A stretch of DNA of 64,000 bases from an uncultured Methanomassiliicoccales archaeon (lineage in GTDB: Archaea; Thermoplasmatota; Thermoplasmata; Methanomassiliicoccales; CAZOLG01), in NCBI GenBank assembly GCA_964580935.1, contig CAZOLG010000001.1:188745-252744 (forward strand), given 5' to 3'. Shown here in pieces: positions 2,127 to 54,549 of this stretch. A program made the translations under genes and the position numbers. The notes under the pieces were generated by a model that saw only the letters and a program-made list of their open reading frames with translations, was not told the origin of the DNA and did not search any database. Each line of letters begins with the position of its first letter. Position 1 is the stretch's first letter.

Positions 2127-2148
2127 AGATTACGATCGAGGGATTACC

Positions 2149-3201: not shown

Positions 3202-3243
3202 AGAGAAGTATGAGGTAAACGGTTTAAATAAAGGAGGAAACGC

Positions 3244-4869
3244 ATGTCAAAAGAATTGAAACTCGACACAGCTATCGTCAACGCTGACGTGATAACTGTC
3301 GATGAGAACATGAGCAGAGCGGGAGCAGTGGGTATTGTTAACGGTAAGATCGTGGCCATTGGTTCTGATAACGAAATCAAAGCAATGATCGGAGACGGTA
3401 CTGAGGTTATCGATGCTAAAGGGAAAACATTGGTCCCGGGTTTTAACGACTCTCACATGCATCCACTGCTTTACGGTCATTTCGCGACCGGGGTGGACCT
3501 GGTGGGCGTCAAGAATATCGATGATTTTCTGCAGAGAGTGAAAAAGAAGGCCGATGAAACTCCAGACGGCAAGATGATCCTGGGCTTCGGATGGAATCAG
3601 GAGCAGATGGACGAGGGCCGGTACCCCACCCGATGGGAAGTGGATGAGGTGACGCCCGATAACCCCGCGTTCCTGATTCACTACAACGCTCATATCTATC
3701 TGGCGAATACCAGACTACTGGAAGAAGAGGGGATCACAGCAGAGACTCCGGACCCTGATGGGGGAACCATTGTCAAGAACGACGAGGGAGAACCCACAGG
3801 GATATTGCTGGAGAACGCTATCGACCTCATTGCCCCCGGATTCCTTGAGACCGGGGCCGGCCTTTTCTCATACGATCAGAGCAAAGAGGCCCTGAGAGTG
3901 GCCGCTGAGGCGGCAGCGGAGAACGGTCTGACTTCGATCATGGACGTATTGGCGGGCGACGCGCAGGTCAAGGCGTACCAGGAACTCGAAAGGGAGAACA
4001 AACTTCCAGTACGTGTCAACATACAGCTGATGTTCCAGCTGCTCGACCAGATGATCGATCTAGGCATCAAGAGCGGTTTCGGAGATGACAAGATCAGGCT
4101 GAACGGAGTCAAGTTGATACTTGATGGGTCTTTGAGCAGTAGGACGGCTGCACTCAGGGAGCCCTACGCTGATGATCCCAGTACCAAAGGGATCATGAGA
4201 CACTCGCCCGAATTCCTGAAGGACGTGGTGCTCAAGGCCCAGCAGAACGATATTAGGGTAGACATACACGCTCTGGGAGACGGGGCGAGCGAGGTAGTGC
4301 TCAACGTGTTCGAAGAGGTACAGGAGGAACATCCGGTGGAAGACCCCCGATTCAAGATCAGCCACTGTCTGATCCTGGCTGAAGACCTCATCGAGAGGTA
4401 CGCAAATCTGGGAGTGATCGCTTCCGTACAACCAGTATTCGCCATGAAGGGACAGTATTGGGCCCCGCGACTGGTAGGGCCAGAGAGAGTCCAGTACTCA
4501 CACGCCTGGAAGCGCCTGGATGATGCAGGTGTCACCATGTGTTCTGGAACGGACGCCCCCATCGAAGACATGAATCCTCTGATGAACATCTACTCTGCGG
4601 TAACCCGAAAGGACCCTGAGGGCAAACCGGAGAACGGATGGCGCCCTGATCAAAAATTGGATGTGGCGACCGCCCTGAGGATGGTAACCCAATGGGGAGC
4701 GTATGCTACGGCTGAAGAAGACGTGAAAGGCTCCATAGAAGTCGGAAAACTGGCCGATATGGCCCTGATTTCAGACAACCCATTCGAGGTCGAACCTGAC
4801 GCCATCAAGGATATCAAAGTCTTGATGACCATAGTGGGCGGAAAGCCCGTGTTCTCAAGAGACTTCTAA
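3244..4869 (+). CDS. Metal-dependent amidohydrolase, Amidohydro_3 / YtcJ-like
   Basis: 541 aa. Motifs: H-x-H metal motif FNDSHMHP, DIHALGDGA, ISHC, GTDAP. RBS AAGGAGGA lies upstream. Confidence 0.8.
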   Translation: MSKELKLDTAIVNADVITVDENMSRAGAVGIVNGKIVAIGSDNEIKAMIGDGTEVIDAKGKTLVPGFNDSHMHPLLYGHFATGVDLVGVKNIDDFLQRVKKKADETPDGKMILGFGWNQEQMDEGRYPTRWEVDEVTPDNPAFLIHYNAHIYLANTRLLEEEGITAETPDPDGGTIVKNDEGEPTGILLENAIDLIAPGFLETGAGLFSYDQSKEALRVAAEAAAENGLTSIMDVLAGDAQVKAYQELERENKLPVRVNIQLMFQLLDQMIDLGIKSGFGDDKIRLNGVKLILDGSLSSRTAALREPYADDPSTKGIMRHSPEFLKDVVLKAQQNDIRVDIHALGDGASEVVLNVFEEVQEEHPVEDPRFKISHCLILAEDLIERYANLGVIASVQPVFAMKGQYWAPRLVGPERVQYSHAWKRLDDAGVTMCSGTDAPIEDMNPLMNIYSAVTRKDPEGKPENGWRPDQKLDVATALRMVTQWGAYATAEEDVKGSIEVGKLADMALISDNPFEVEPDAIKDIKVLMTIVGGKPVFSRDF

Positions 4870-6475: not shown

Positions 6476-8332
6476 TTACTCCCCTATCCCCAACCGCTCG
6501 ACGACGGTTGGAAAAAGAGAGAGGTCCATGTGAGGGATGAACATCGCCTTGTAGAATTCGTCCTCAAAATCTTCCTGAGCCGCAAGTTCGAGGTATTCTA
6601 TGCGCTCCACCATCTCGTCCGCCCTCTTCCTCTTCCCACCGTTCAATACGGCCATCTTACACCCCGTACCTGCCGCGTTACCCACTCCTCTTATTCTCCC
6701 CAAAGAGACCTCAGGGAAGATACCGATATTGAGTGCATTTACCGGTGAAATGTAATTGCCGAATGCCCCTGCAAGGAATATATTCTTCAGCTGTTCAGGT
6801 CTGACGTTCCTACGGTTCATCAACGTAGAAGAACCGACATACAAGGCTGCCTTGGCGTACTGTATCTGTTCGATATCATTCTGAGTGATCGAAATTAGCT
6901 TATCAGATCCAGACTCACCCTCTTCCGCCAGCACGTACTCCAGCTCTCCATCGACCATCCTGACTCTGGAACTACCTATCTCCTTGCGGATTCTTCCTGA
7001 GTAGTCGATGACCCCACTCCCCAGCATCTCTGAAATGGCGTCCACGACGCCGGATCCACAGAGCCCGATCGGGGGGGCGTCTCCTATGGTGCCACATTGC
7101 ACCTCGAAATCATCGCTGATAGTGACTGATTCGATCACCCCCTCGGTGGCCCGCATGCCATATTTCAGATTGGCCCCTTCGAAGGCCGGACCGGCTGCGG
7201 TGGAGGTGGAGATTATACCATCCTCAGTGATCAACGAGATCTCTCCATTGGTGCCAATATCTATTACCAGAGAAGGGGCCTCCAGGTCTTCCAGTTCGCA
7301 GGCCAGAAGGGCCGCCACATGGTCTGCTCCCACGAAGCCGGCGATGTTGGGCAGAGAAGAGACATATCCCTCTTTATTGACATTGATTCCCAGTTCCGAG
7401 GCCTTGAACTCCAGGCTGCTACAGGAGACCGGTACATATGGACACAGGGCGAGATGCCTGGTATCCAGCCCGAAAAGGAAGTGGTGCATGGCCGTATTGC
7501 CCACTATTCCCACTTCATATATCCTCTCTTTGCTTATTCCTGCAGAAGAGCAGAGATCTCCTACTAAAGTGTCAATACACTCAACAATCGACTCCTGAAG
7601 AATAGAGGTCCCGCCTTCTTTTTCCATGGACATCGTGATCCTGGAGATCACGTCGTCACCATACTTGATCTGAGGATTCATCATCGACCGCACCGAGAGG
7701 TGAGCCCCGTTCTCCAGGTTCAACAGATAGCCTACAACTGTGGTGGTCCCTATATCTACAGCCACTCCATATATGTCGTGTGATGCCCCGGCAGAAAGAT
7801 CGAGAACTTCGCCATCTTTACTCACCACCCAGACTTCGGAGTTTGACCTCAGTATATGGGGGAGATCTCTCAGGAGCGATAATCCGATATTCATTGGTCT
7901 AGCCCTGCCTAGAGCATCAATTAACCTCTCGAAATCGCTGATCTGATGCTCCAGAGAGGGGTCCTTAATGACCACCCTCCTCACCTCGATAACCGGATCT
8001 ATGTCTAGATCGGAGAGAGAGTCCTCTAAGATCACCTGTTCATGCCTAAAATACTCAGATGGAATCTCGATATCAAGGTCGTCCACTACCTCAAGTTGGC
8101 AGGCCAACCTCATACCGGAATCCAACTCCTCTTGAGAAAGTTGCTCCCTTTCAATTTCACCTATTGGAGCCGTTCCCTTCTTGACAACTATTCGGCAGTT
8201 AGTACATGAACCCCGGCCACCACAGGTGGACTCTATGGATATGTTTGCCCTGTTCAGAACTTCGAGCAGTTGCTCACCGATTGTCTTGGTTTCAATGTAC
8301 TTGTCTGTGGGTTGAATGTGGATTATGGGCAT
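6476..8332 (-). CDS. Reductive activator of corrinoid enzymes (RACo/RACE-type ASKHA ATPase with N-terminal 2Fe-2S ferredoxin domain)
   Basis: 618 aa. N-terminal plant-type ferredoxin cysteines CGGRGSCTNC...LACQ. ASKHA phosphate motifs VAVDIGTTTVVGY and VIDIGTNGEISL. COG3894-like length. Confidence 0.8.
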   Translation of the reverse strand: MPIIHIQPTDKYIETKTIGEQLLEVLNRANISIESTCGGRGSCTNCRIVVKKGTAPIGEIEREQLSQEELDSGMRLACQLEVVDDLDIEIPSEYFRHEQVILEDSLSDLDIDPVIEVRRVVIKDPSLEHQISDFERLIDALGRARPMNIGLSLLRDLPHILRSNSEVWVVSKDGEVLDLSAGASHDIYGVAVDIGTTTVVGYLLNLENGAHLSVRSMMNPQIKYGDDVISRITMSMEKEGGTSILQESIVECIDTLVGDLCSSAGISKERIYEVGIVGNTAMHHFLFGLDTRHLALCPYVPVSCSSLEFKASELGINVNKEGYVSSLPNIAGFVGADHVAALLACELEDLEAPSLVIDIGTNGEISLITEDGIISTSTAAGPAFEGANLKYGMRATEGVIESVTISDDFEVQCGTIGDAPPIGLCGSGVVDAISEMLGSGVIDYSGRIRKEIGSSRVRMVDGELEYVLAEEGESGSDKLISITQNDIEQIQYAKAALYVGSSTLMNRRNVRPEQLKNIFLAGAFGNYISPVNALNIGIFPEVSLGRIRGVGNAAGTGCKMAVLNGGKRKRADEMVERIEYLELAAQEDFEDEFYKAMFIPHMDLSLFPTVVERLGIGE

Positions 8333-11825: not shown

Positions 11826-14081
11826 CTACTCTTCTTTTGCCGGACACTTAGGATTGATGCACTGAGTGTGACTGTTGTCCTTGATCACCATATCCACGAT
11901 GGGGGCTCCGCATGAATCACAGGCCCTACCAGTGAACTCCACTGTACCCTTCTGCCACAAGGGGTATGAGTTCTTGCAGTTGGGCCAACCCGAGCAGCCC
12001 ACGAACCTCTTGCCCTTTCTCGAGTATCTTATCCTCAATATCTCCCCGCACTCAGGGCATTCACCCACGGAGGTTCTCTCCACGTTACTGCTGCATTCGG
12101 GGTCTATGCATTGCAGGGAAACGGGTTTCCCCTTCCTTATCACCCTCAGGCAGGGCAGACTGCATCTATCACAAATCTCCTCCGTGGTCTCCACTTTGGC
12201 TCCTCTGGGTATGGAAAAAGTACAGGTGCAGTTAGGATAGTTAGAACACCCGATGAATGTGCCCTTCTTCGATTTTACTATCCTGAGGTTCTCACCGCAT
12301 TCAGGGCACTCGCCTACGTACTTCTGCTCCCTGAGGGCCGTTCGGATCTCATCACCTATCTCTTTCTTATGTTCCTTCATTGAATTAAAAACACTCGTGA
12401 GCATCTCCCGGGATTCCTCCACCACGTCATCTAGCTCAATGTCCCCGGATGCTATCTTCTGCATGTCCTTTTCCAGCTGAGAAGTCATCTCACTCCTGGT
12501 GATGGGCGTAGCGTACTTGCCCAGGGATTCAGTGACCACTATGCCGGTTCGTGTGGGCACCGGATAAGAGCCCTCTATGTACTTCCTGTCGTACAGCTTC
12601 TGTATGATGCCGTGCCTTGTGCTCTTGGTGCCCAACCCCTGTTTCTCCATCTCCTGCAGCAGGGCACCCTGTGAATACCTTCTAGGTGGTTCAGTCTCCT
12701 TTCTGATGAGCAGTATTTCTTCGACTGTCACTTCTTCCCCCTTTGAAAGGGAGGGCAGCTCCCTCTCATCTACCCTGTAGTAGGGATAGTACTTCCTCCA
12801 CCCAGGGAAAACTATCTTGTAACCTTTGGAAAGGAATGTCTCTTCGTTCACCTTCAGCTCCCCGTCGGTCACCTCGGCGATGGCGGGTGGTGCCACCGTG
12901 GCCATGAACCGGCGGACGACCAACTCGTAGAGCTTCCACCTGTCTCCCTTCAAGTTCTTCTTTGTAGCCCCTCTTACAGGGTGTATTGGCGGGTGGTCTG
13001 TGCTATAGGACTTGCCCCTTGACGGCCTGATCTTGTCCTGAGATAGCAGCTCGTCCGCCTCCTTCTCGAACTCAGATTCCTTCAGCTTCTTCAGTATCTG
13101 TTTCAGGGAGAGGGAACGAGGATAGACAGTGTTGTCCGTCCTGGGGTAGGAAATGAATCCGTTATTGTAAAGGTCCTCGGCCACGCTCATGGCCCTGCTG
13201 GCCGACAACCCTCTCTTGTTGGCCTCGGCCAACATGATGGTGGTGTTGAAAGGTGGTGGCGGATACTCCTTCTTCTCCTTGGTCTCCCACTTGTTGACCA
13301 AAGCAGTCTTGGATGCTTCCACCCTTTCCATGATCTCCTCCGCTTCATCCTTGTCCCAGAAAGGATTCTCTTTATGGTCGGCTCTGAAGTGGCTAGTATC
13401 GCTGAACTCACCGCTTATCTCCCAGTAAAGTTCGGGAACGAAGTCCCTTATCTCTTTGTGTCGGTCGACCACGAGGTTTAGAGTGGGGCTCTGGACTCTC
13501 CCAGCAGAGAGGTAGTCGTGGCCCAGCTGGCCCGAGGTCAAGGAGAGGAATCTGGTAAGGGATGCTCCCCAGGTCAGGTCGACCACCTGTCTAGATTCTG
13601 CTGATTGGGCTAGCTTTTCATCAGGCGTTTTGAGAGAAGAAAAGGCCTCTTCGATTTCATGTTTGGTCAGTGCGCTGAATTTGGCCCTCTTAATCTCTTG
13701 GGGACCTATATTCAGTAATCTCACTGTCTCTAGCCCGATCAGTTCTCCTTCCCTGTCGTAATCGGTGGCGATGATAACCACATCGCTCTCCTTGGTCAGG
13801 TCCCTGAGCACAGAGATGAGCCCTTTGGCCCTCACCTGTTTCTCGATGGGAGCGTCAATCAACTCCTCTGGATCGACTGCGTTCCAGTCGTTGTATTCAT
13901 CCGGATAATCGACTTCGATTATATGTCCTCGCAGACCGACTACCTTCCACTCCCCCTCTTCATCTTCAAATTCGAAAACAGGGACTCTGTTGATACTCCT
14001 CCTTTTAGAATTGCCGTCGGAGAGGATGTACGCTATCCTGGAAGCGGCTTTCGTTTTCTCAGAGATTACTAGTTTCTTCAT
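11826..14081 (-). CDS. topA: DNA topoisomerase I (type IA) with four C-terminal C4 zinc ribbons
   Basis: Toprim ATDYDREGELIG and active-site Tyr context SYPRTDN. Repeated CPECG...C..C ribbons. Start set at ATG 14081 (MKKLVISEK); the track GTG at 14132 lies inside the att/promoter sequence. Confidence 0.9.
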   Translation of the reverse strand: MKKLVISEKTKAASRIAYILSDGNSKRRSINRVPVFEFEDEEGEWKVVGLRGHIIEVDYPDEYNDWNAVDPEELIDAPIEKQVRAKGLISVLRDLTKESDVVIIATDYDREGELIGLETVRLLNIGPQEIKRAKFSALTKHEIEEAFSSLKTPDEKLAQSAESRQVVDLTWGASLTRFLSLTSGQLGHDYLSAGRVQSPTLNLVVDRHKEIRDFVPELYWEISGEFSDTSHFRADHKENPFWDKDEAEEIMERVEASKTALVNKWETKEKKEYPPPPFNTTIMLAEANKRGLSASRAMSVAEDLYNNGFISYPRTDNTVYPRSLSLKQILKKLKESEFEKEADELLSQDKIRPSRGKSYSTDHPPIHPVRGATKKNLKGDRWKLYELVVRRFMATVAPPAIAEVTDGELKVNEETFLSKGYKIVFPGWRKYYPYYRVDERELPSLSKGEEVTVEEILLIRKETEPPRRYSQGALLQEMEKQGLGTKSTRHGIIQKLYDRKYIEGSYPVPTRTGIVVTESLGKYATPITRSEMTSQLEKDMQKIASGDIELDDVVEESREMLTSVFNSMKEHKKEIGDEIRTALREQKYVGECPECGENLRIVKSKKGTFIGCSNYPNCTCTFSIPRGAKVETTEEICDRCSLPCLRVIRKGKPVSLQCIDPECSSNVERTSVGECPECGEILRIRYSRKGKRFVGCSGWPNCKNSYPLWQKGTVEFTGRACDSCGAPIVDMVIKDNSHTQCINPKCPAKEE

Positions 14082-14105
14082 TCGAGGCCAGCAAAGTAGG
14101 ACTCG

Positions 14106-14117
14106 ATATAAATATAT
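14106..14117 (-). promoter_or_regulatory. TATA-box-like element about 25-30 nt upstream of the topA ATG (leaderless-type spacing), inside the att repeat
   Basis: The minus strand reads ...GCAATATATTTATAT. The distance to ATG 14081 fits archaeal TATA-TSS spacing. Confidence 0.4.
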
Positions 14118-14135
14118 TGCTTGTAAAATCACTGG
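14106..14135. repeat. attL (30-bp direct repeat)
   Basis: Identical to 23129..23158. The flanking bases differ (G/A on the left, A/C on the right). Confidence 0.9.
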
Positions 14136-14291
14136 ATAAACAGAAAAGTGCCCTCCTCAGGGCATTCCCGCAGGATGCACAAACCTCTTTCTTCTTTATT
14201 TATACTGGATATGATTAAGGAATAGTGTACAGTTTAACAATAGTTATATACGATAATTAACGAAATCAAGAGGCTCTTTGTGTCCTCTATA

Positions 14292-14317
14292 GCTGTCATA
14301 GCCGTCACAGCTGTCAT
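14292..14317. repeat. Three tandem 9-bp units (AGCTGTCAT-like), inverted copy of 21898..21923
   Basis: GCTGTCATAGCCGTCACAGCTGTCAT is the reverse complement of 21898..21923 with 1 mismatch in 26. Confidence 0.8.
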
Positions 14318-14544
14318 ACTCTTAGAAATTTCGATAATCAGTCTAACCATTTTAAGTTAAGATTAAGTAATAGAAATCATAAAGTAATTTTCTCTTACTT
14401 TCGTATTAGATATTAGAATTAGTTAGTATTCACACTACTGGACTGTTCAAATTGAGGTCTGATATCGTGTATTAGAGTTATTAGAATTCACCGTCTAAAA
14501 TCTTAATTAGCATAAGTGTTGATTATATTCAGGGGATTAAGATC

Positions 14545-14862
14545 AAATGCCCAAATTGCTATGCTGACATTCCAGAGGGTTCAAGGTTTTGTAGGAACTG
14601 TGGAACAGAAATTGAATCCGTTACAGGGCCTAAATCCTCAGAATTTGGTACAAGAGAACTAATAATGGTTGCAGTATCGATTCTCGTAGCTGCAATCGTT
14701 ATTCTTGGATTATTCGTTGTTCCTTTTGCCCAGTCAAAAATCATAGTCACTGTCGAGTCCGATCATCTTGTAAACACCATAGATTATGCTCTTTATCTTG
14801 ACGGAGAATTGATGGCAGAAGGCCAGCTGGACGCAGGCTCTTCCGATGTAATCACAATATGA
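14545..14862 (+). CDS. Zinc-ribbon plus single-TM small protein (start codon unresolved)
   Basis: The frame is open from 14485. It encodes KCPNCYADIPEGSRFCRNCGTEI, then the TM helix IMVAVSILVAAIVILGLFVV. No ATG/GTG/TTG lies upstream of the ribbon; the track starts only at ATG 14665. Confidence 0.55.
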   Translation, partial: KCPNCYADIPEGSRFCRNCGTEIESVTGPKSSEFGTRELIMVAVSILVAAIVILGLFVVPFAQSKIIVTVESDHLVNTIDYALYLDGELMAEGQLDAGSSDVITI

Positions 14863-15032
14863 CATTATCCGATAATGTCATCAGGAAATTACGGAGTAGT
14901 AATAAGTGCAACTTCTGTTGGCGGTGGATTTGGAGATGTGAGTGACCAAATGGAACTCACCTTAGAGTGGGGAGAGACATATTCATTTGTACTATACGTT
15001 TGAATTCAAGCGAATTGTAACTCTACTGAAGC

Positions 15033-15368
15033 CTATCTAATCCTGGCTCCACAATGCTTACAGTACTTTGCTCCTTCCTCAGTAGGTTTGCCACATTGAG
15101 GACAATACATCGGACGCCCTTCGTATTGAGGCATCCTGTCGGCAGAGTGGGGATGATATTTAGACCTTATGAGTAGTGAGGTAATTAGAAAACCAGCGCC
15201 TATGAGAATAATCGCAATCCCAAGATAGCCCAAATCGTTGATTCTATAATGAGTAGTATTGAATATCGTCCAGATCTCGATACCACAGAAGAATAGAATC
15301 ATTATCCCCACTACTATTGCAAATATACCCGCTGCCAACGCGAAGTCCTTTTCCGGGGATCTATCCAT
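15033..15368 (-). CDS. Membrane protein (3 TM) with C-terminal zinc ribbon
   Basis: 111 aa. Hydrophobic helices, then CPQCGKPTEEGAKYCKHCGARIR. Confidence 0.6.
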   Translation of the reverse strand: MDRSPEKDFALAAGIFAIVVGIMILFFCGIEIWTIFNTTHYRINDLGYLGIAIILIGAGFLITSLLIRSKYHPHSADRMPQYEGRPMYCPQCGKPTEEGAKYCKHCGARIR

Positions 15369-15745
15369 GCTTTATTTCAATTGGTTTCATATACTATATT
15401 CTTAACTCATCCATTGATAAGTCTGATTATGTGATTTACTAGCTTGATTTGAAAAGAACAAATATTTCAAACGAATTCATTGCGACACAGCGCTTCCCTC
15501 TCATCTACAAATTTCTTAAGTTTATTACAAAAGACTTAGTAGCATAAATATCACCCACTGGACCTCATTTAGTCAACGACGCTTGCCCGAATATCAACAA
15601 AATCACTGGTAGTCAAATCATATATAAAGGAACACTGCGCCGATCCTCAAAGTTAAGGCGCGAACCCCTGCTTCTGGACGTAATCTTACCCTTCCAGTAA
15701 TCGATATTCCACCTCTCCGGTCCCCGGTGTCTCTATCGGCTCCTC

Positions 15746-16288
15746 TCACTCAGAAGACCGTCTAACTTCCTCAAAGATTCCCGTTTCGTCGAGGATGTCG
15801 ACGATCTTTTTGATGCGATCTGGATCATCCTCCTCCACGGGTCCTCCGTTCATGGTTTCCATCTTCACGTATTCCGTCGGGTCCCCGCGCACCTTTAACT
15901 CGAGTTCGACCGCCTCTTTGAACCACCGTATCATGTCGGAAGGAGTGAGGTCCCACCCTTCGTTTTCGAGCATCGCCTCGAGCCTCTTCCGGACCGCACT
16001 GTGGAATTTCTCACATGTTTTGAGCGTTTCCTCATTCCGTCTCCTCCTCAGCTCGGCCATGTGCGCCATCTGCATGCGCTCCAGGTGTTCGTCGTAGGCC
16101 TCCGCCCTTTTCACCCAGTCGTATTTAGCAGACCACTTCTGTATATATCCGAGGTATCCCTTCGGCCTTTCCAGTCTCTGCCGTACCCTGTCGTGAGTTC
16201 TCTCCGGTCCCATATCACGGTACAGGCAGAACGCATGGTAGGACTTCGAGGTTTCATCCTCTTTTTTTTCCCACGGCAGTTTAGTCAT
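15746..16288 (-). CDS. Hypothetical DNA-binding-like protein (N-terminus resembles phage/plasmid HTH or small-terminase-like proteins)
   Basis: 180 aa. The pattern YHAFCLYRDMGPERTHDRV...YIQKWSAKYDWVKRAEAYDEHL recurs in mobile-element HTH proteins. The family assignment is from memory only. Confidence 0.5.
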   Translation of the reverse strand: MTKLPWEKKEDETSKSYHAFCLYRDMGPERTHDRVRQRLERPKGYLGYIQKWSAKYDWVKRAEAYDEHLERMQMAHMAELRRRRNEETLKTCEKFHSAVRKRLEAMLENEGWDLTPSDMIRWFKEAVELELKVRGDPTEYVKMETMNGGPVEEDDPDRIKKIVDILDETGIFEEVRRSSE

Positions 16289-16438
16289 GATATCACCACC
16301 TGTCTCCCCACTATTTACAGTCTTCCGTCCACCTACTACGCCTCCCGGCCGGCGGTGAGACGGGCCCTCACCCCCTGGTGTTACCCCTCCCCTTTTTCCT
16401 AATAATTCGCCTTTTTCCTATATATATAATTTACCATC

Positions 16439-16651
16439 ATGTCCGGTGGTGCCAGACGTCTCAGGGCGGCCTCTTTCGTCCTCAAGAACATGCCCACTAA
16501 AAGGCCGGTAATATCCCGCGCCGGTCCTTCGGACCCAGAATCCATATTGAAGGATGATGCCTTGAAGAAGACTTTCGGCGAGACTTTTGAACCGGACAGT
16601 CAGGAGTTGGAAGATTTTGCCAGGAAACTGGCAGAGAAATTGAATGACTGA
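16439..16651 (+). CDS. Hypothetical small acidic protein
   Basis: 70-aa ORF between two minus-strand genes. No recognizable motif. Confidence 0.3.
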   Translation: MSGGARRLRAASFVLKNMPTKRPVISRAGPSDPESILKDDALKKTFGETFEPDSQELEDFARKLAEKLND

Positions 16652-16804
16652 ATCGAAAATAAAGTATAGGGTAAACATACGGTAAACATAGGGTGATATG
16701 AAAATATTGTGTCAAACCGTGTATCGTAGATCTGTGGATGTTTTTGGAGGGACCCACCCCCCCAAACACTAATATTTTTTGATAGTGATTTGTACAATTC
16801 TAAT

Positions 16805-17404
16805 CTAATCTGAAACACTTTCCGATAATTTATCATACTGCATTTCTGCAAATTCCTTGAAATCATCGAAGTCTATTGACACGTCTTCAGAGGTGTAGAC
16901 ATTCTGGCATAACATATGAATCACTACATTACCAGTTCGGAAATATTCATAATGATAATCACCGGGAGGAGCGTTCAAGGTCCATCCTAGACTATTATTA
17001 CCTAGTTCTAAAGAGACTGCATCAGCATATTGGTGTTCCGAAGTTAGGTTTATGTAGGCTTCTTGGGCCTTAGAAGGAGTTTCATATTTCATTAGAGATA
17101 TTTTGATGCTAACAACAGCCATTCCACCTGAGTATCTCTTTTCAAATGAGGCGAATGAAGCATCTGACCAAATGGGATCTGTTGTCAAGTCATCTGCCTC
17201 CTTAACTTGCCATTGACTATCGATCTCTGTTAGATTCAGTATCAATTCGCTCGCAGGTAGAGTATAGATGCCCCCTTCTGGATAATTGACTCCTGCATTA
17301 TCTTCATCAATATCAGTGCCGAGACAGCCCGACAGACTTAGAGAAATAGCCAGGATTCCAACCAAAATAACGGAAACCATTCTTGAGTTGCATTCCTTTT
17401 TCAT
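16805..17404 (-). CDS. Putative lipoprotein / secreted protein
   Basis: Start set at ATG 17404 (MKKECNSRMVSVILVGILAISLSLSGC). This gives a signal peptide with a lipobox-like LSGC. Confidence 0.6.
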   Translation of the reverse strand: MKKECNSRMVSVILVGILAISLSLSGCLGTDIDEDNAGVNYPEGGIYTLPASELILNLTEIDSQWQVKEADDLTTDPIWSDASFASFEKRYSGGMAVVSIKISLMKYETPSKAQEAYINLTSEHQYADAVSLELGNNSLGWTLNAPPGDYHYEYFRTGNVVIHMLCQNVYTSEDVSIDFDDFKEFAEMQYDKLSESVSD

Positions 17405-17414
17405 TTTTTTACCT

Positions 17415-17555
17415 CTAATCTCTCTTGAGTGAGAGATAGACATGGTGACAAAAGGAACAATGCCATTCAATATTGAATGGATAGATATCTTCATCGATAG
17501 AATCTATCTTGGTCATCTGGCGGCCACAGACTGGACATTTCAATTTCATATTCAT
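17415..17555 (-). CDS. Small zinc-ribbon protein (46 aa), not in the ORF track
   Basis: Translated by hand: MNMKLKCPVCGRQMTKIDSIDEDIYPFNIEWHCSFCHHVYLSLKRD*. It has CxxC...CxxC and ends 11 nt before the lipoprotein start. Confidence 0.45.
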   Translation of the reverse strand: MNMKLKCPVCGRQMTKIDSIDEDIYPFNIEWHCSFCHHVYLSLKRD

Positions 17556-17596
17556 TTTCCTAAATGTCTCAACTTAGCTGACTGCAAAAATTATTT

Positions 17597-17815
17597 CTAT
17601 GGATAGTCAGACATATCTCCTTCCTGGTCAAACTTTGGTGCCCGTAGCATCTTTTCAGGAGTATGACATATCGGACATCTGCGGGGCCATTTCCATACAA
17701 GATAGATAAGACCAGGGATTAATCCCAGAAGAAATAGGATAATCATTATTCCCAGATGCCAACTGTGTTCAGTGTCAACATTCCTTTTACATGATGGACA
17801 GTATTTCATGGTCAT
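17597..17815 (-). CDS. Zinc-ribbon / TM / CxxC mini-membrane protein
   Basis: MKYCPSCKRNV... followed by TM IMIILFLLGLIPGLIYLVW ... RRCPICH. Confidence 0.55.
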   Translation of the reverse strand: MTMKYCPSCKRNVDTEHSWHLGIMIILFLLGLIPGLIYLVWKWPRRCPICHTPEKMLRAPKFDQEGDMSDYP

Positions 17816-18255
17816 TGGGCAACCCCACAGATTGTCATTTCTTTAGTTATATAAATAAATTTCATTTCTTCCCAACAGGTTCAAGAGACCAGATGGTATA
17901 CTGGTCAATTCCGACATTACTTGTAACCGCCCGGAAAAATGAAAAAGGAAGTAATGTGAAATCCAACATTACTTCCATCCCGGACAAAAGGACCACTGCC
18001 CGGATCCCCAGGATTGATGCACAACCCCCCCCCCTCTTCTAGGCAAAAGTTTACCATCCGGTAAGCGGGTCCGCTACCGGTGGCGCCAGGTCCGCGCCGG
18101 GGTCCTGATCATACCTTTTTCGATAAAGGGGCCGAATGGAGATATACATCGAAAGATTTATATAATCGTTCGAAATGTTCTATGAAGAGTAACTGAGTTT
18201 AGCCCCCTTCATTAATAAATAACCATAAGGTTTATATAATTGTGCCATATGTTTA

Positions 18256-18438
18256 ATGAAGAGCGTGACCGGGGCGGCCGGTTATTTTCTTCAGGAGATT
18301 CAAATGAAGCGCAATATATTATTCGAAATAGACCAGAATGAAAAAAGGCTCCTGGACATAGCCAAGGCGAAAAGTGACTACGAAACATGGAAGGATTTCT
18401 TCATATCTTTAGTAGAGAGCCAGGAGAATGACGAATGA
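18256..18438 (+). CDS. Small hypothetical protein, possibly ribbon-helix-helix-like (alternative start 18304)
   Basis: MKRNILFEIDQNEKRLLDIAKAK... shows a beta-strand/helix pattern. A TTTATATAAT box lies about 25 nt upstream of 18256. Confidence 0.4.
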   Translation: MKSVTGAAGYFLQEIQMKRNILFEIDQNEKRLLDIAKAKSDYETWKDFFISLVESQENDE

Positions 18439-18728
18439 ATCTAGAAAAATTAGAAGAGCTGGTAGAATCTGACAATCCTATCCAGTTGAGCAGGCCCGCT
18501 AGAAGGGTTGAGTTAAAACAATCTGAGGCGATAGATGAGCTCAGCGATCAGCTTTACTCTCCCACCTGCGGCTTCAGAAGAGCAGAGAAGGCGGGTAATG
18601 AGGTCCAGATGATCAGGTGGCATAAGCCCGCTCTCAAGGAGTTTAACAAGGTCCTGGGCGCCTACGACAGGGCGCGGAGGATTCTGTTCAGGCGGACGGT
18701 TGACGCAATGAACATTAGGATACATTGA
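18435..18728 (+). CDS. Hypothetical protein, translationally coupled to the preceding ORF
   Basis: 97 aa. ATGA overlap with the upstream stop. Confidence 0.45.
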   Translation: MNLEKLEELVESDNPIQLSRPARRVELKQSEAIDELSDQLYSPTCGFRRAEKAGNEVQMIRWHKPALKEFNKVLGAYDRARRILFRRTVDAMNIRIH

Positions 18729-18894
18729 GGAGGTCATCGAGGAGACGCTGTTCAACGAGGATTAAACCCCTTTCCCTTTATTCTTTCTTTCATTTCTTAT
18801 GAATCCATGAGGAAAATCTTCTTTAGGAACGGTGCGCGTACTTACTTATGAGCGGGAGACGGTTTGGATGAGAACCTGAATCGCCGCATTGGTC

Positions 18895-19473
18895 ATGGAG
18901 GTGAGGGGTTTGCATAAGTCATTCTGGCTTGGCCTGATTGGCGGGATATTTGGGATATCGGCATCCATCGGTGTTATATTTCTCGGTGGGCTTGAAGAGG
19001 CTTTTGGCGCGGGTGCGGGGGAGCTTTATGGTCTTGGGTTCGCTGCCATGATCTTTTCCGTTATCGGCATGGTCGGCGGGATACTGGAAAAGAACAAGGC
19101 GATCGGGGGCACACTGATGGTGGCAAGCGGAATAGTGGTCCTCATATGCATCTCACTATATGGGGTCCTCACCTTCGTGTTCTTCCTTATCGGAGGTGTG
19201 ATTTACCTGATAGAATGGAGGAAGGAAGCCCAATTCTCCACCAAAGTCAGAAATGAAACCACCGTCAAACAATCTACAACATCTGATGAACTGGATGAGA
19301 CAGATGCAATCATAGTCAGGCGTTGCTCGAAGTGTCACACAGTCCTTGAGGATGATTGGGCGGTGTGCCCAAAATGTAAGAGTGTCTTTCGGAAGAAGTG
19401 CCCAGATTGTGAGAGAATCTTACCGAAGAATTTCGAAGCCTGTCCATATTGTGGACACGATTTCGGTAATTGA
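18895..19473 (+). CDS. Membrane protein (4 TM) with C-terminal double zinc ribbon
   Basis: ATG at 18895 (the track TTG is at 18889). The C-terminus is CSKCH...CPKC...CPDC...CPYCGHDF. Confidence 0.6.
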   Translation: MEVRGLHKSFWLGLIGGIFGISASIGVIFLGGLEEAFGAGAGELYGLGFAAMIFSVIGMVGGILEKNKAIGGTLMVASGIVVLICISLYGVLTFVFFLIGGVIYLIEWRKEAQFSTKVRNETTVKQSTTSDELDETDAIIVRRCSKCHTVLEDDWAVCPKCKSVFRKKCPDCERILPKNFEACPYCGHDFGN

Positions 19474-19499
19474 TAAAGAAAAAGTCAGACGCTGGGTTC

Positions 19500-19694
19500 T
19501 CATAATAGAGAGTCATCCCTCTCCTCCAAAGCCACCAGCTCCTCGCTGATCCTGACCTTCAGCTCTGGGTGATTTGCCAGCGCTTTATCGAGGATCCGAA
19601 TGATGTCCTGGATTAGATTCTCCGTTTGTGCACATTTCGGACAGAGGCGCTGCTTGCCGATCCAGTCGACGCGGATCGTGTGATCCTTGGGCAC
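19500..19694 (-). CDS. Hypothetical protein with a single CxxC pair; reading frame stays open and protein-like up to 19934
   Basis: GTG start at 19694 in the track. The upstream in-frame sequence ...ERNYLNVIEAGDHQRALNWARGWSDGIEKLLKATGVYDRAKKEVERE has no canonical start. It competes with antisense ORF 19626..19928. Confidence 0.35.
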   Translation of the reverse strand: MPKDHTIRVDWIGKQRLCPKCAQTENLIQDIIRILDKALANHPELKVRISEELVALEERDDSLL

Positions 19695-20132
19695 CTCCCT
19701 CTCAACCTCTTTCTTGGCGCGATCGTAAACACCGGTGGCCTTGAGGAGCTTCTCGATACCGTCGCTCCATCCCCGCGCCCAGTTAAGCGCTCGCTGGTGA
19801 TCCCCGGCCTCGATGACATTGAGGTAATTCCTTTCACATTCGGAGAGGAAACCCCCGCGCTTCCTTTGGAGAGTACTGGATGGAGATTTGGATTTCCTTT
19901 GATTCAGAAAGATATAAAGGCGGGGTAAATCGTGTCAATTTGAACATGGCCCCGACACTTTCACTTTGGTTGGGCATGAATTAAAATAGGTACAAGCGTT
20001 ATAAATTTCGAGGTGAGAAAAAAGAAAAAAGAAATCCGCATTTTGGATAGATTTAAACGCTAGAGATTTAAGAAGAACGTTGGGAAGGGAGGAATCCCTG
20101 CCAGGAAGCTCCCTTCCCCATCACTTCGGAAA

Positions 20133-20369
20133 GTGATTAAAATGAATAATGAAAGAATAAGTAATAATCATTTCGGTGAAAAACCGGATAAAGACGAACT
20201 TGAAAAAATTTTACAGACTGAAATGTGTCTGGGAGTAATTTTGAGGGCCAGATATCCAGATATTTTGGATATCGTAAGAGAATTGGAAGACCATCCAGAA
20301 CTAGATATAATCTACGTCCGAAAATCGATAGGCAAGCTCTGGATTCGGGGGGAGGGTAATGACTACTGA
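20133..20369 (+). CDS. Small hypothetical protein (first gene of the element replication-like module)
   Basis: 78 aa. GTG at 20133 or ATG at 20142. It overlaps the next ORF. Confidence 0.4.
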   Translation: MIKMNNERISNNHFGEKPDKDELEKILQTEMCLGVILRARYPDILDIVRELEDHPELDIIYVRKSIGKLWIRGEGNDY

Positions 20370-20595
20370 GGTCAAGAGAGAGCCCGTACCGGCCGGTTTG
20401 GACATGGAGGCACCCTTCTATATCATCGCCTGGGAGAAGGGCCTGATGGACGACTTAGAGGGTATTCTGGGGCTGTATGTGGACATGATCACCCGTGGTA
20501 GGGTCCTGGTCAAGCCCGTCCACCTGAGAGAATTGGAAGCGTGGCAGCGGGTCCTTAGGGATTATGATTGTGTCCTAATCCCGGAGGTGCTGTAA
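20359..20595 (+). CDS. Small hypothetical protein
   Basis: 78 aa. It overlaps both neighbours; the TAATG junction at 20593-20597 joins it to the P-loop gene. Confidence 0.45.
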   Translation: MTTEVKREPVPAGLDMEAPFYIIAWEKGLMDDLEGILGLYVDMITRGRVLVKPVHLRELEAWQRVLRDYDCVLIPEVL

Positions 20596-22130
20596 TGAGC
20601 GAAGGAGTGGCTAAGCCGGGCCTGATCATCGATAAGACCAGTGATCTCAAAATAGTTGAACAGTGCTATAATGGTCAGAACCCCCATTTCGTGGTGTTTG
20701 ACGCGCTTACTGAAGAATGGGAACCGAGGTCTCAAGTGAAGCACAACGACGTGTTGTATTCTCCAATTCAGGACGCGCTGTTGGAGAAAGGGTTTATCTA
20801 CCTCCCATCAAGACCGGAGGACTACGAGGATGAATTGAGCCTCTTCAATGAGATCATCGACTTCCTCCATGAATGGGTGGACGTTGGAGACAGGACGACA
20901 GAGAAGCTAATCACCGCGTACATTCTGATGACTTGGCTATACGATAAGATGCCCTGCATTCCAATCCTCAATATTCGGGGAGGGAAAGGTGCAGGCAAGT
21001 CAAGGTTGGGAACGCTGTGCATCCGGTTGTCATTCAGAGGTATGAGAGGATCCGGAGCGGCCACCTTCTCCCCCATATTTCGTAGCGTAGAACGGTGGAA
21101 AGGCACACTATATCTTAACGAGAACGACATGGGGCATACCGATGAGACCTCTAACTTGGTGACCTTTCTTAATGAGAGATTTGAGAAAGGGGGCGGTGTA
21201 TGGCGCTCCAAAAAAAACAACCCCAGTCAGACGGAGGTTTTCAATTCTTACGGACCTACCATAATGACCACCCGATCCGCTTTTCAGGACGATGCGGTGG
21301 AGTCCAAGAGTATAATCATCAGGATGAAGGAGACTGAGAGGGATATTTTATTGAACCTCCCCCCAAGATTCTACGAGAAGGCGGCGGAACTGCGCAACAA
21401 ATTGTTCATGTTCCGGCTTCGTAACTACTTCGCCTTTAAAAATGATTATGAATTGCGGTTTGAGGGTATCTCTCCCAGGATGGGGCAGATCGTGCAGCCA
21501 CTGGGAAGTCTTGCCAGGATGATTTCAGATGAGTTTTACAATGAGATTAAGAGCTTGGTCAATGAGTTATTCCAGAGGCAGGTGAAAGAGGCCGCCGATT
21601 CATACGATGGGAGGGTAGTTAGAGCATTCTTCTCTCTTGAAAATAAGAATGGTAAGAATACTGGAATCACGGCCACTGAGATATCAAAGCAGACAGATGA
21701 GTGGGACTGTAAAATTTCGCCGGCGGTTGTAGGTAAACGAATGAAGGCCCTCGATTTCGAGCAACGAAGAAAGGGTAATTCTCGCCCCTATTTCCTGGAA
21801 GATGATCGGAAGAGGCAAAGGTTGCGCAGGAATTACATCCCCTTAGACGAAAGGGGGGACAATCGAGAGGTCCAGAGAACGATCGAGAACGTGTCTCATG
21901 ACAGCTGTGACAGCTATGACAGCTACATGGGACAGGGTGGGGGTGTGATCTCTTCCCAACAGGAGAGCATTGAGTACCTACGATATGTGATCGACAACCA
22001 GTCCGTCACCATAGATGACCTGGTAGAATTCAATGACCGCGTGCCCAACATCCAGACAACGGCTAAGAAATTGAAGGAACAGGGTGAGATTATCGAGCTC
22101 CCTAATGGAACTCTGGAAGTCAAAAGATAG
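20595..22130 (+). CDS. P-loop NTPase, possibly SF3-type replicative helicase / replication initiator of the element
   Basis: Walker A RGGKGAGKS and Walker B-like TLYLNENDM. The C-terminus looks wHTH-like. It carries the 3 x 9-bp repeat encoding DSCDSYDSY. Confidence 0.6.
   Translation: MSEGVAKPGLIIDKTSDLKIVEQCYNGQNPHFVVFDALTEEWEPRSQVKHNDVLYSPIQDALLEKGFIYLPSRPEDYEDELSLFNEIIDFLHEWVDVGDRTTEKLITAYILMTWLYDKMPCIPILNIRGGKGAGKSRLGTLCIRLSFRGMRGSGAATFSPIFRSVERWKGTLYLNENDMGHTDETSNLVTFLNERFEKGGGVWRSKKNNPSQTEVFNSYGPTIMTTRSAFQDDAVESKSIIIRMKETERDILLNLPPRFYEKAAELRNKLFMFRLRNYFAFKNDYELRFEGISPRMGQIVQPLGSLARMISDEFYNEIKSLVNELFQRQVKEAADSYDGRVVRAFFSLENKNGKNTGITATEISKQTDEWDCKISPAVVGKRMKALDFEQRRKGNSRPYFLEDDRKRQRLRRNYIPLDERGDNREVQRTIENVSHDSCDSYDSYMGQGGGVISSQQESIEYLRYVIDNQSVTIDDLVEFNDRVPNIQTTAKKLKEQGEIIELPNGTLEVKR
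21898..21923. repeat. Three tandem 9-bp units (GACAGCTNT) inside the P-loop gene; inverted partner of 14292..14317
   Basis: ATGACAGCTGTGACAGCTATGACAGC matches the reverse complement of 14292..14317 at 25 of 26 positions. Confidence 0.8.
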
Positions 22131-22164
22131 ATATGTCTGTAAGTACATCTGGGTGGTGAGAAGG

Positions 22165-23109
22165 ATGCCTTCCAAGAGGCGGATATGGGAGCGCATCCTG
22201 CGGGAGTATCTAGAAGATTGCAGGGACAGACAACTCAGCAAATCTACGATAAAGAACTACCGGTACACACTGAAGAATCTACTGGAAACACTGGAGAAGG
22301 GTGGTAAGAACACCCACCCAGATAAGATAGGTAAACAGGACCTGGCCTATCTACTTTCCAGTCTAAAGGGAACCCAGAAAACGATGCAACACAAGGTTGC
22401 GGTCCTTAAGGTGTTCCTGAAACACCACGGTAATACAACGCTAGACAAAATGGGAGTGTCCTACCAGACAGACATGAGACCTAACGCAGACTGGTTGAGT
22501 CCTGAAGAATCGGAGATAATCAAGACAGTATGCGCCACCCCGGTGGAATGCCTTATAGTCCATCTGGAGGTTGATTTGGGGCTGAGAAGGGTGGGTATAA
22601 TGCGCCTAACCAAGGAGTCCATAAACCACCGCAGTAGGACGGTCAATGTACTAGGCAAGGGTAGGATGGGAGGTAAGGAAAGGACGGTACCCTTCCATAG
22701 AGATACCGAGAACGTGCTAACAAAATACTACGAATGGAGGCAAAAGATGGTACTACAGGAAATGAGTAAGAACTCCAACTTCGAGGACCCAGATAAACTG
22801 CTATTGGTGAAATCTAAGGGACAACTCAAGGTACCGACTATCTACATGTTCGATGGTAGGCTCAGGGAGGTCTCCAAGAGATCGGGTATCAAATTCTCCA
22901 ACCACACACTCAGAAGGACCTATGGCCGGAATCTGTGGAAGGCGGGGGTCCCCTTGGAGACAATCAAGGAGCTGATGGGGCACTGCTCTATCGACACCAC
23001 CATAGATTACCTAGGTATACGACTAGACGACATGACCGATGCTATGGACAGACTAGGAGAGTATCAGAAGAGTATATTATGCCCTCAAGAAGGCATTTTT
23101 GAGCCCTAG
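22165..23109 (+). CDS. Tyrosine recombinase / integrase (XerC/D-like)
   Basis: Start at ATG 22165 (MPSKRRIWERIL). Catalytic motifs: GLRRVGIMRL (Arg), HTLRRTYGRNL (H-x-x-R) and MGHCSIDTTIDYL (His ... Tyr). Confidence 0.9.
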   Translation: MPSKRRIWERILREYLEDCRDRQLSKSTIKNYRYTLKNLLETLEKGGKNTHPDKIGKQDLAYLLSSLKGTQKTMQHKVAVLKVFLKHHGNTTLDKMGVSYQTDMRPNADWLSPEESEIIKTVCATPVECLIVHLEVDLGLRRVGIMRLTKESINHRSRTVNVLGKGRMGGKERTVPFHRDTENVLTKYYEWRQKMVLQEMSKNSNFEDPDKLLLVKSKGQLKVPTIYMFDGRLREVSKRSGIKFSNHTLRRTYGRNLWKAGVPLETIKELMGHCSIDTTIDYLGIRLDDMTDAMDRLGEYQKSILCPQEGIFEP

Positions 23110-23128
23110 CCAGTGTGTTCTAACAACA

Positions 23129-23158
23129 ATATAAATATATTGCTTGTAAAATCACTGG
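23129..23158. repeat. attR (30-bp direct repeat)
   Basis: Identical to 14106..14135. Confidence 0.9.
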
Positions 23159-23738
23159 CTGACAAAGAAAGAGGCCGTTGTTATTCATTCTCCATTGTTG
23201 TGCGAATTCCTTCTTCCATATTCTACATATGGAGAGGACATATGATTACACAATTGTTCTCCTGAAGTCCGAAATCGTGAAGCTGCCATAGAGGTGCTCG
23301 ATAGAATTGCTGATCGTAATCTCTAAGGCCCGATGTCAAGGCATTTGACAATTGATGCAATATGTCAGATAAATGGATACAAAATAGGTTCTCCAGCATC
23401 TGAATGATAAGTTGAAGAGGGGGTGAAAGAAGATCGGTGTTGATATGATTTACTGAAGACCAAATATGTAAAATGACTGTTGAAATGGACCGGGCGAAGA
23501 GTGATCTTCGACAATCTGCAGACTGTACAGTAATGACATCTAAGACAAAGGTAGTTAGTCAAAGGTCAACAGTCTGGAATAGATTTTGAAGGACAATATT
23601 AATCTGGATACAATGCGAAGGTTCTCCTCCAGAATAATGTCAAGCCACCCCCCTAAGAGTCATCAAATTGACTCGAGGTCCTATTTAGCGAGGGATCATT
23701 ATCCGTCAAAGTGTCTTATTGCTTGCACCGGCCAGAAA

Positions 23739-54462: not shown

Positions 54463-54549
54463 GCCGGGATGACAGAGCGGCCATGTGGCGGACTGCAGAC
54501 CCATGGCGGCAATCCGCATACCCGAGTTCAAATCTCGGTCCCGGCTCCA
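54463..54549 (+). tRNA. tRNA-Cys (GCA) with about 13-nt intron after position 37 and encoded CCA
   Basis: Acceptor GCCGGGA/TCCCGGC, discriminator U73. Anticodon stem GCGGA ... TCCGC is interrupted by ACCCATGGCGGCA (54499..54511). Loop CTGCAGA, T arm CCGAG-TTCAAAT-CTCGG. Confidence 0.85.

Follow-up and report, generated by a model that had tools for sequence, protein, structure and literature searches.

In bacteria, satellites that appropriate the packaging machinery of tailed viruses are widespread. Those that carry a terminase small subunit (TerS) gene of their own have been described for bacteria (for example, PMC9618062). In archaea, according to a 2025 preprint, the only known satellites are pSSVx and pSSVi, to which that work adds proposed satellites of spindle-shaped viruses (SRCE); it lists no satellite of archaeal head-tailed viruses (10.1101/2025.02.15.638363). 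Among the integrated elements of Thaumarchaeota, 15 of 68 are intergenic and 14 lie within protein-coding genes (PMC6563490), and the provirus psiM100 uses an AT-rich intergenic site (PMC8371274). Here, we analyze a stretch of 64,000 nucleotides (hereafter, the window; contig CAZOLG010000001.1, positions 188,745 to 252,744) from a Methanomassiliicoccales-related archaeon of the Thermoplasmata. The window contains a block of 9,023 bp that is, with high probability, a site-specific integrative element of the 'cryptic integrated' kind that targets the promoter of topA, the gene for topoisomerase I. In addition to a tyrosine integrase and a superfamily 3 (SF3) helicase, this element encodes an orphan TerS homolog.

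The block is delimited by an exact 30-bp direct repeat, ATATAAATATATTGCTTGTAAAATCACTGG, with one copy at 14106-14135 (the core of the left attachment site, attL) and the other at 23129-23158 (the core of attR). These are the only two copies in the window, both strands considered, when up to three mismatches are allowed, and none would be expected, judging from 100 dinucleotide-preserving shuffles; a third, degenerate att copy or a tandem scar is not found in the window even with up to eight mismatches. Thus, the perfect repeats reported in the initial annotation are borne out. The concern that such a repeat might be an intergenic motif present elsewhere finds no support either: there are two copies in the window, a 25-nt part of the core has no matches in the JGI metagenome contigs, and the repeat is, accordingly, no common motif. 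Past the inner (right) side of the repeat, a weak similarity extends for 18 nt more, with 10 of the 18 positions matching. The start-to-start spacing of the copies, 9,023 bp, would equal the size of the excised circle.

The element begins with ATAAACAG... and ends with ...CTAACAACA, and these ends are not inverted repeats. A casposon or another transposon was considered and rejected, given that there are no terminal inverted repeats and no transposase or casposase, and that the 30-bp repeat adjoins a tyrosine integrase gene, the stop codon of which is located 20 nt before attR. ARAGORN detects no tRNA near either junction, and Rfam yields only chance-level matches there, in agreement with the earlier claim that the target is not a tRNA gene.

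The best matches of the protein encoded by topA, at 54-60% identity, come from Methanomassiliicoccaceae/Methanomassiliicoccales and from other metagenome-assembled genomes of Thermoplasmata. We compared the locus with six syntenic relatives of the Methanomassiliicoccales type (L004, L005, L016, L047, L049 and L067), all of which retain the gene order folC, asnB, ADP-forming acetyl-CoA synthetase (acs), nikR, topA; in L047, the radical-SAM gene on the far side of topA is present as well. The distance from the end of nikR to the topA ATG is about 100-140 bp in the six relatives compared with 9.66 kb in the window. The empty site that the initial annotation proposed to look for is therefore found in terms of gene order: the six relatives lack the 9 kb, and nikR lies directly upstream of topA. 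The comparison of composition with the flanks, also proposed there, points in the same direction. The GC content of the element is 0.455, about 6 standard deviations below that of 9-kb windows of host DNA (0.515 +/- 0.010, minimum 0.498; n=149), and its tetranucleotide L1 distance is 0.247 compared with 0.101 +/- 0.010, and 0.12 at the maximum, for the host windows. The block is a foreign insertion between nikR and topA.

These observations bear directly on the alternative under which there is no mobile element at all, the repeat having arisen from the topA promoter by a chance or regulatory duplication, and the genes between the copies being ordinary, lineage-specific ones of the host. An AT-rich, promoter-like repeat could, in principle, recur, and neither an excised form nor an empty site at the nucleotide level was observed. 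However, two copies occur in none of the 100 shuffles, the composition of the block is foreign by about 6 standard deviations in GC, the gene order of six relatives is interrupted, and the block encodes an integrase 20 nt from one of the repeats along with an SF3 helicase of the mobile-element type and a viral TerS. This explanation is effectively refuted, and we assign it a negligible probability.

Between attR and the nikR stop codon lies a stretch of 580 AT-rich base pairs (23159-23738; GC 0.41). It has no Rfam match and includes two small minus-strand open reading frames (ORFs; 23223-23399 and 23365-23562) without a family match. Its similarity to the element is no higher than the shuffle level, and the possibility that it is a remnant of a related element was rejected for this reason; the stretch might be the scar of an older insertion or else a lineage-specific gene.

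In archaeal promoters, the TATA box is centered near -26/-27, with the transcription factor B recognition element (BRE) immediately upstream, and leaderless mRNAs are frequent. On the minus strand, topA starts with the ATG at 14081, a start codon supported by tblastn alignments that begin at residue 1 in almost all relatives. The minus strand of the attL core (14106-14135) reads CCAGTGATTTTACAAGCAATATATTTATAT and includes, at the promoter-proximal end, the TATA-like sequence TTTATAT (14112-14106), together with the position of the BRE. The TATA-like sequence lies 25-31 nt upstream of the ATG, which matches the initial estimate of about 25-30 nt. In the orientation of topA, the upstream sequence is CCAGTGATTTTACAAGCAATATATTTATAT followed, beyond the end of the repeat, by CGAGTCCTACTTTGCTGGCCTCGA-ATG. 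In all six syntenic relatives, a TATA-like box (TTTATATA, TTTTATAA or TTTAATAT) is located 24-31 nt before the topA ATG, and is followed by a semi-conserved motif of the TCCAC(T/C)TTG type. The window copy of this motif, TCC(T)AC(T/C)TTG in the comparison of the upstream regions, is just outside the repeat on the host side, in the host DNA from the TATA box to the ATG (14082-14105, minus strand), which integration leaves unchanged.

Judging from its position and conservation, the att core most likely coincides with the BRE/TATA region of the topA core promoter. With the core duplicated in its entirety, the BRE and the TATA box would stay at their native spacing in attL. The earlier proposal that integration regenerates the topA promoter at attL fits these data, the TATA box being at the same distance in all six relatives. 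Only 13 nt inside the left end of the element, there is a terminator-like hairpin with a T-tract that points to the topA promoter (14149-14164, minus strand; a 6-bp stem with four GC pairs, followed by CTTTTCTGTT; fold z-score -2.15). If this hairpin acts as a terminator, it may shield the topA promoter from transcription of the element. A target other than a tRNA gene is not novel by itself, and the exact overlap with the BRE/TATA of an essential gene is a nuance rather than a new principle; among the papers that we read, we found none that describes an integration core falling exactly on the BRE/TATA box of such a gene.

The integrase gene (22084-23109, plus strand; called start at 22105) is intact and encodes an Xer-like tyrosine recombinase (PF00589, E = 6e-18) with SAM-like N-terminal domains. 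In the alignment with P. abyssi XerA (4a8e), the catalytic R, HxxR, H and Y are all present, within the motifs GLRR, HTLRRT, GH and IDY. The ORF is continuous, and the att core is outside it. SSV-type integration was therefore rejected, the integrase gene being unsplit, as the initial annotation had concluded.

Directly upstream of the integrase is the gene for a 520-aa protein (20568-22130, plus strand; called start at 20595) that had been described as a replication-like P-loop protein. HMMER search, structural modeling and Foldseek comparison identify it, more specifically, as an SF3 replicative helicase of the D5/NrS-1/SaPI type, with C-terminal winged-helix domains and no primase domain. 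The protein has no match in Pfam, PHROG or among PDB sequences, and a word-indexed search retrieves a single homolog; an exhaustive HMMER search yields 4,414 homologs, 723 of these at E <= 1e-30. The longer relatives are fused to N-terminal Prim-Pol, PriCT-1, DnaG-type or PriL-like primase modules. An AlphaFold (AF2) model built from 40 homologs has a mean pLDDT of 89.8 and matches SF3 replicative helicases in Foldseek at a probability of 1.0, including the C-terminal region of the phage NrS-1 protein (E = 4.5e-8) and, further, PriRep1, the SaPI5 primase-helicase, African swine fever virus (ASFV) PrimPol, poxvirus D5/E5, adeno-associated virus (AAV) Rep40 and simian virus 40 (SV40) LTag; the TM-scores of 0.3-0.4 are modest, as is to be expected when a protein has multiple domains. 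At its 3' end, the helicase gene overlaps the start of the integrase gene (22084-22130) by 26-47 nt, depending on the start codon used, which suggests a co-transcribed replication-integration operon. Altogether, the layout outlined initially, with an integrase at the right end, small ORFs, a P-loop protein and an AT-rich left arm, is recovered in full.

Metagenome contigs encode helicases related to that of the window at 36-42% identity, several of them followed by a tyrosine integrase; the helicase-then-integrase order recurs in L147, L149, L152 and L154. Two relatives are delimited by repeats: L146 is a 7.26-kb element with a 29-nt repeat (17 nt exact) at the 3' end of a tRNA-Pro gene, and L149 is a 5.4-kb element with a 15-nt exact repeat at the 3' end of a tRNA-Ala gene. 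Both encode a homolog of the window SF3 helicase (40-42% identity) and, at the end of the element, a tyrosine integrase; identity to the window integrase is 36% in L149, whereas tblastn did not detect the integrase of L146. L146 and the window element additionally have in common a membrane protein with a double zinc ribbon. The gene order in both L146 and L149 is membrane zinc-ribbon genes, helicase, serine recombinase, tyrosine integrase; thus, these elements differ from the one in the window by the extra serine recombinase between the helicase and the integrase, as well as by the tRNA 3' end targets and the lack of TerS. The window element, in turn, is larger, has an added left arm, differs in its kind of target and is the only one with TerS. 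The backbone is that of a family of small (5-9 kb) integrative elements that normally reside in tRNA 3' ends. The closest relative of the integrase, in L073, comes from a locus of similar layout, in which a 180-aa gene is not TerS-like and att repeats are not detectable. No close relatives of the whole element were found in IMG/VR.

Two of these relatives show features of their own. L146 contains a gene for a surface protein (7240-7860) with at least seven 69-nt tandem repeats (leucine-rich-repeat-like), a cargo that is missing in the window element. In L147, a 4.6-kb metagenome contig, the helicase relative (1944-3209, 42% identity) lies between a 3' fragment of an integrase gene upstream (25-327) and a second integrase gene downstream (4027-4593), and this contig may represent a tandem array of related elements.

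The orphan TerS homolog is encoded by an intact gene on the minus strand (15746-16288; 180 aa), with an N-terminal helix-turn-helix (HTH) and a long central helix (phrog_6299, E = 5e-25). It matches the annotated TerS of two cyanophages and the putative TerS of Methanobrevibacter smithii tailed virus 1 (MSTV1), in which the TerS gene directly precedes those for the terminase large subunit (TerL) and the portal. All 22 homologs that we retrieved from viral contigs are followed by a large ORF on the same strand, recognizable as TerL in at least 15 cases; three more homologs, from assemblies, also precede TerL. Immediately after the gene for the closest homolog (59% identity) comes an ORF that encodes a TerL N-terminus with Walker A and B motifs. 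Because of this homology combined with the strongly conserved TerL synteny, the family is identified as TerS. The window protein is full length and keeps all invariant residues of a small alignment, and its gene is the only copy without a large ORF after it: downstream are 377 nt of non-coding DNA and then a small membrane protein gene. The structure model of the protein likewise has an N-terminal HTH and a long helix, and a fold search with this model returns only generic HTH matches, all with E > 1; the model neither strengthens nor weakens the assignment.

Two further observations concern the surroundings of these genes. The outer 11 nt of the att core, CCAGTGATTTT, recur in a third exact copy on the minus strand (15599-15609), within the 377 nt of non-coding DNA just downstream of the TerS-like gene, where a TTTATATA box precedes them; about 0.03 exact copies of an 11-mer are expected per window, and this one could serve the integrase as an accessory site or belong to a pac region. 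In L206, the TerL (1611-4163) encoded next to a TerS homolog consists of 850 aa, includes a LAGLIDADG domain and is probably intein-bearing.

The initial annotation stated that the block contains no capsid or terminase-like genes. The part on the capsid holds and extends to TerL and the portal: no remnants of these genes are detected in the 64-kb window by tblastn, which yields only noise even at E = 10, or by PHROG and Pfam; tail and lysis genes are likewise missing from the PHROG and Pfam matches. The part on the terminase does not hold, given the TerS homolog. With the major capsid protein, portal and TerL undetected by Pfam, PHROG and tblastn, a tailed provirus (Caudoviricetes) was rejected, and the earlier preference for an integrated plasmid or cryptic element over a complete provirus stands. 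A pleolipovirus-like provirus was rejected as well, there being no ORF of the size of a VP4-like fusogen (~500 aa); this is a weak test, in which VP4 was not searched for specifically. The largest ORF besides those of the helicase and the integrase encodes 229 aa and has no family match.

A deletion remnant is a separate matter. In that case, a full-length tailed provirus that once had TerL, portal, capsid and tail genes would have kept only the att sites, the integrase, the replication gene and TerS. Such an origin would account for the tailed-virus homologs of TerS and for the damaged-looking ORFs described below, and the SF3 helicase family is common in viral contigs of 20-50 kb. Nevertheless, even at E = 10, no trace of TerL, portal or capsid genes is seen in the window, the att repeats show no mismatch, and the genes for the integrase, helicase and TerS are all intact. 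Furthermore, TerS does not head a packaging operon but is on the opposite strand, among non-viral membrane protein genes. The closest att-defined relatives of the helicase-integrase backbone are only 5.4 and 7.3 kb long and have no structural genes, and because these relatives are small, small size appears to be ancestral for the backbone, which argues against a cut-down provirus. We consider a remnant of this kind quite improbable.

An integrative element that combines an integrase, an SF3 replication protein and TerS, within 9 kb and without structural genes, has the hallmarks of phage-inducible chromosomal islands (PICIs). A more specific reading takes the same integrated element to be a PICI-like satellite of an archaeal tailed virus. 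Upon infection by, or induction of, a helper of the Caudoviricetes, the element would excise and replicate with the SF3 helicase, and its own TerS would recognize a pac-like site on the element and recruit the helper TerL, so that the element would be packaged in helper capsids and spread, probably at the expense of the helper. This reading gives a role to an intact TerS (phrog_6299, E = 5e-25; matches to annotated viral TerS) that has no obvious use lacking TerL. Its homologs precede TerL (in at least 15 of the 22 viral contigs, L071, L072 and MSTV1), whereas the window copy stands alone, without a large ORF after it and without TerL, portal or capsid genes in the 64 kb. The closest homolog (59%) precedes a TerL N-terminus, which means that a tailed virus with a related TerS exists; the TerS of marine satellites is, likewise, closest to that of co-occurring phages (PMC9618062).

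Against this reading, the case consists of the gene content of a single locus, without a sibling element that carries TerS (it is missing from L146 and L149). The analysis identified no helper virus, no pac site, no repressor and no genes for capsid-size redirection, and there is no helper in the 64-kb window; the element was not found among the IMG/VR viral contigs; the fold search with the TerS model returned generic HTH matches only; and other genes of the element show signs of decay. The TerS-like HTH protein could, moreover, be a regulator or a recently captured passenger. On balance, we regard the satellite lifestyle as possible, somewhat short of an even chance. In a search limited to open-access text, we came across no report of a satellite of archaeal tailed viruses that carries TerS, and the element could tentatively be the first PICI-like satellite of an archaeal head-tailed virus, parked in a rebuilt topA core promoter.

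The broader interpretation, an integrative element that targets the topA promoter, implies the following scenario. The Xer-like tyrosine recombinase would exchange strands within the 30-bp core common to attP and attB; the expected attB junction would read ...GTAGGACTCG-ATATAAATATATTGCTTGTAAAATCACTGG-CTGACAAAGAAAGAGGCC..., and the attP junction ...GTTCTAACAACA-ATATAAATATATTGCTTGTAAAATCACTGG-ATAAACAGAAAAGTGCCC.... The attB core would overlap the BRE/TATA of a leaderless-type topA promoter, in the short nikR-topA spacer. Conservative recombination would duplicate the whole core, with the TATA box of attL at the native distance, and the essential topA gene would still be expressed. The hairpin with the T-tract near the left end would stop element transcription from entering the topA promoter. 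Replication of the excised circle would involve the SF3 helicase and a host primase, the latter being needed because the element encodes none, with the origin located, perhaps, in the AT-rich, iteron-bearing left arm. On the evolutionary scale, a member of the family would have switched from tRNA 3' ends to a promoter target, and would have gained a viral TerS together with a set of small membrane and zinc-ribbon protein genes. The element could be mobile even at present.

Several points weigh against this interpretation or parts of it. The empty site is seen by gene order at family-level divergence, not at the nucleotide level, because the relatives share only 54-60% amino acid identity in topA. 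The att core is not matched in the JGI metagenome contigs, so that there is no nucleotide-level attB or attP junction. With the element removed, 580 AT-rich base pairs stay between attR and nikR, and because this stretch is missing in the relatives, the ancestral site is not fully explained. The promoter role of the core is suggested by position and conservation. The helicase has no primase domain, and the origin is suggested by the iterons and the AT-rich arm. Finally, the element includes damaged-looking genes, one with an in-frame TGA and two frames without a canonical start, and may no longer be fully functional.

The remaining parts of the element are mostly small genes and non-coding regions. 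The AT-rich non-coding left arm (14136-14484; GC 0.354 over 14000-14499, and 0.35-0.40 over 14000-15500) could contain the replication origin and the attP arm. Within it, on the minus strand, is a cluster of iteron-like repeats (14291-14317; ATGACAGCT, GTGACGGCT, ATGACAGCT), and a second cluster is on the plus strand at 21898-21924 (ATGACAGCT, GTGACAGCT, ATGACAGCT), in the codons of a disordered linker of the helicase (aa 439-461, DSCDSYDSY). The stretch with the first cluster is a 37-nt, 89% inverted match to 21898-21934. The underlying 9-bp motif, RTGACAGCT, occurs six times in the window compared with about 1.0 expected, and five of the six copies are inside the element, in the two inverted clusters, which are candidate origin or regulatory iterons.

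To the right of the left arm, a plus-strand frame (14485-15003) encodes zinc-ribbon, transmembrane and beta-rich segments (Pfam Zn_Ribbon_1, E = 2e-8), has no ATG, GTG or TTG start and is interrupted by an in-frame TGA (14860-14862). The TGA is inside a perfect 10-bp palindrome, ATGACATTAT-CCG-ATAATGTCAT (14859-14881). The frame is probably decaying; it could represent a pseudogene, recoding or an embedded operator. Next are minus-strand genes for a 111-aa membrane protein with a C-terminal zinc ribbon (15033-15368; Pfam Zn_Ribbon_1, E = 2e-7) and, beyond TerS, for a predicted secreted or lipoprotein-like protein of 229 aa, with a signal peptide followed by LSGC and without a family match (16805-17494). 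Two small minus-strand ORFs of 46 and 72 aa (17415-17815) encode zinc ribbons, the latter together with a transmembrane segment.

The central divergent intergenic region (17816-18255) includes a duplicated 37-nt promoter-like unit with the box TTTATATAA (18153-18189 and 18227-18263). The two copies are 81% identical, and in each, the TTTATATAA box is about 25 nt before ATGAAGAG; a 4-codon ORF comes after the first copy, and the second one starts the 60-aa ORF. This looks like a tandem promoter of the divergent control region of the element. The GC-rich segment 18036-18135 does not stand out as a structured RNA, with a z-score of about -0.5 on both strands. To the right, three plus-strand ORFs of 60, 97 and 194 aa (18256-19473) include, as the last one, a DUF4064-like membrane protein with a double zinc ribbon (Pfam, PHROG) that matches L145 and L146 in tblastn. 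A protein-like minus-strand frame of about 142 aa (19500-19930) has a Cys-X2-Cys motif and no family match; its first canonical start is at 19694, the 80 codons upstream of this start look coding (…ERNYLNVIEAGDHQRALNWARGW…), and the frame may belong to a pseudogene or be read from a non-canonical start. Two overlapping 78-aa ORFs on the plus strand (20133-20595) lie upstream of the helicase gene. Beyond the zinc ribbons and DUF4064, the small ORFs have no family match, including DNA-binding families, in Pfam and PHROG, and PADLOC finds no defence systems in the element. Elsewhere in the window, the tRNA-Cys(GCA) gene at 54463-54549 is predicted to be 87 nt long, longer than usual, and may contain an intron or a long variable region.

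The element resembles the archaeal cryptic integrated elements and integrative plasmids that encode a tyrosine integrase and an SF3 or primase-helicase replication protein, such as the CIE class of Thaumarchaeota (PMC6563490). Like these, it is small, is flanked by direct repeats and encodes, next to cargo that is mostly ORFan, an SF3-type replication protein and, at one end, an intact integrase, and it lacks virion genes; intergenic targets, too, are documented for this class. It differs from them in that its core lies on the topA BRE/TATA, its helicase has no primase domain, and it encodes an orphan TerS. The element offers what appears to be a natural case of a simple Xer-like integrase that has switched targets, from the tRNA 3' ends used by its family to the core promoter of an essential gene, in which the insertion would preserve the promoter in the same way as tRNA-targeting elements preserve the tRNA. 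It is also a testable case of an element that sits on, and possibly influences, the expression of topoisomerase I.

With the bacterial Staphylococcus aureus pathogenicity islands (SaPIs), other PICIs and further phage satellites of bacteria that bear TerS, the element shares the combination of an integrase, an SF3-type replication protein and its own TerS in about 9 kb, without capsid, portal, TerL or lysis genes; the model of its helicase matches the SaPI5 primase-helicase structure, and the closest homologs of its TerS are viral. Unlike these satellites, it has an archaeal host, and its TerS is on the opposite strand, at a distance from the replication module; we identified neither a helper or a pac site nor a repressor/derepression module or genes for capsid remodelling. 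As for the satellites described in archaea, pSSVx, pSSVi and the proposed SRCE are, similarly, small plasmid-derived replicons with an incomplete set of virus morphogenesis or packaging genes, and pSSVi integrates as well; however, these exploit spindle-shaped viruses by means of a capsid protein or an AAA+ ATPase, whereas the window element has the TerS of a head-tailed virus. If this TerS is functional, the packaging-theft lifestyle would extend to Archaea, and the combination of an integrase, an SF3 helicase and a lone TerS would provide a template for the search for such elements. Set against these known systems, the element is ordinary as an integrated element and noteworthy for the promoter-preserving target switch and the orphan TerS.

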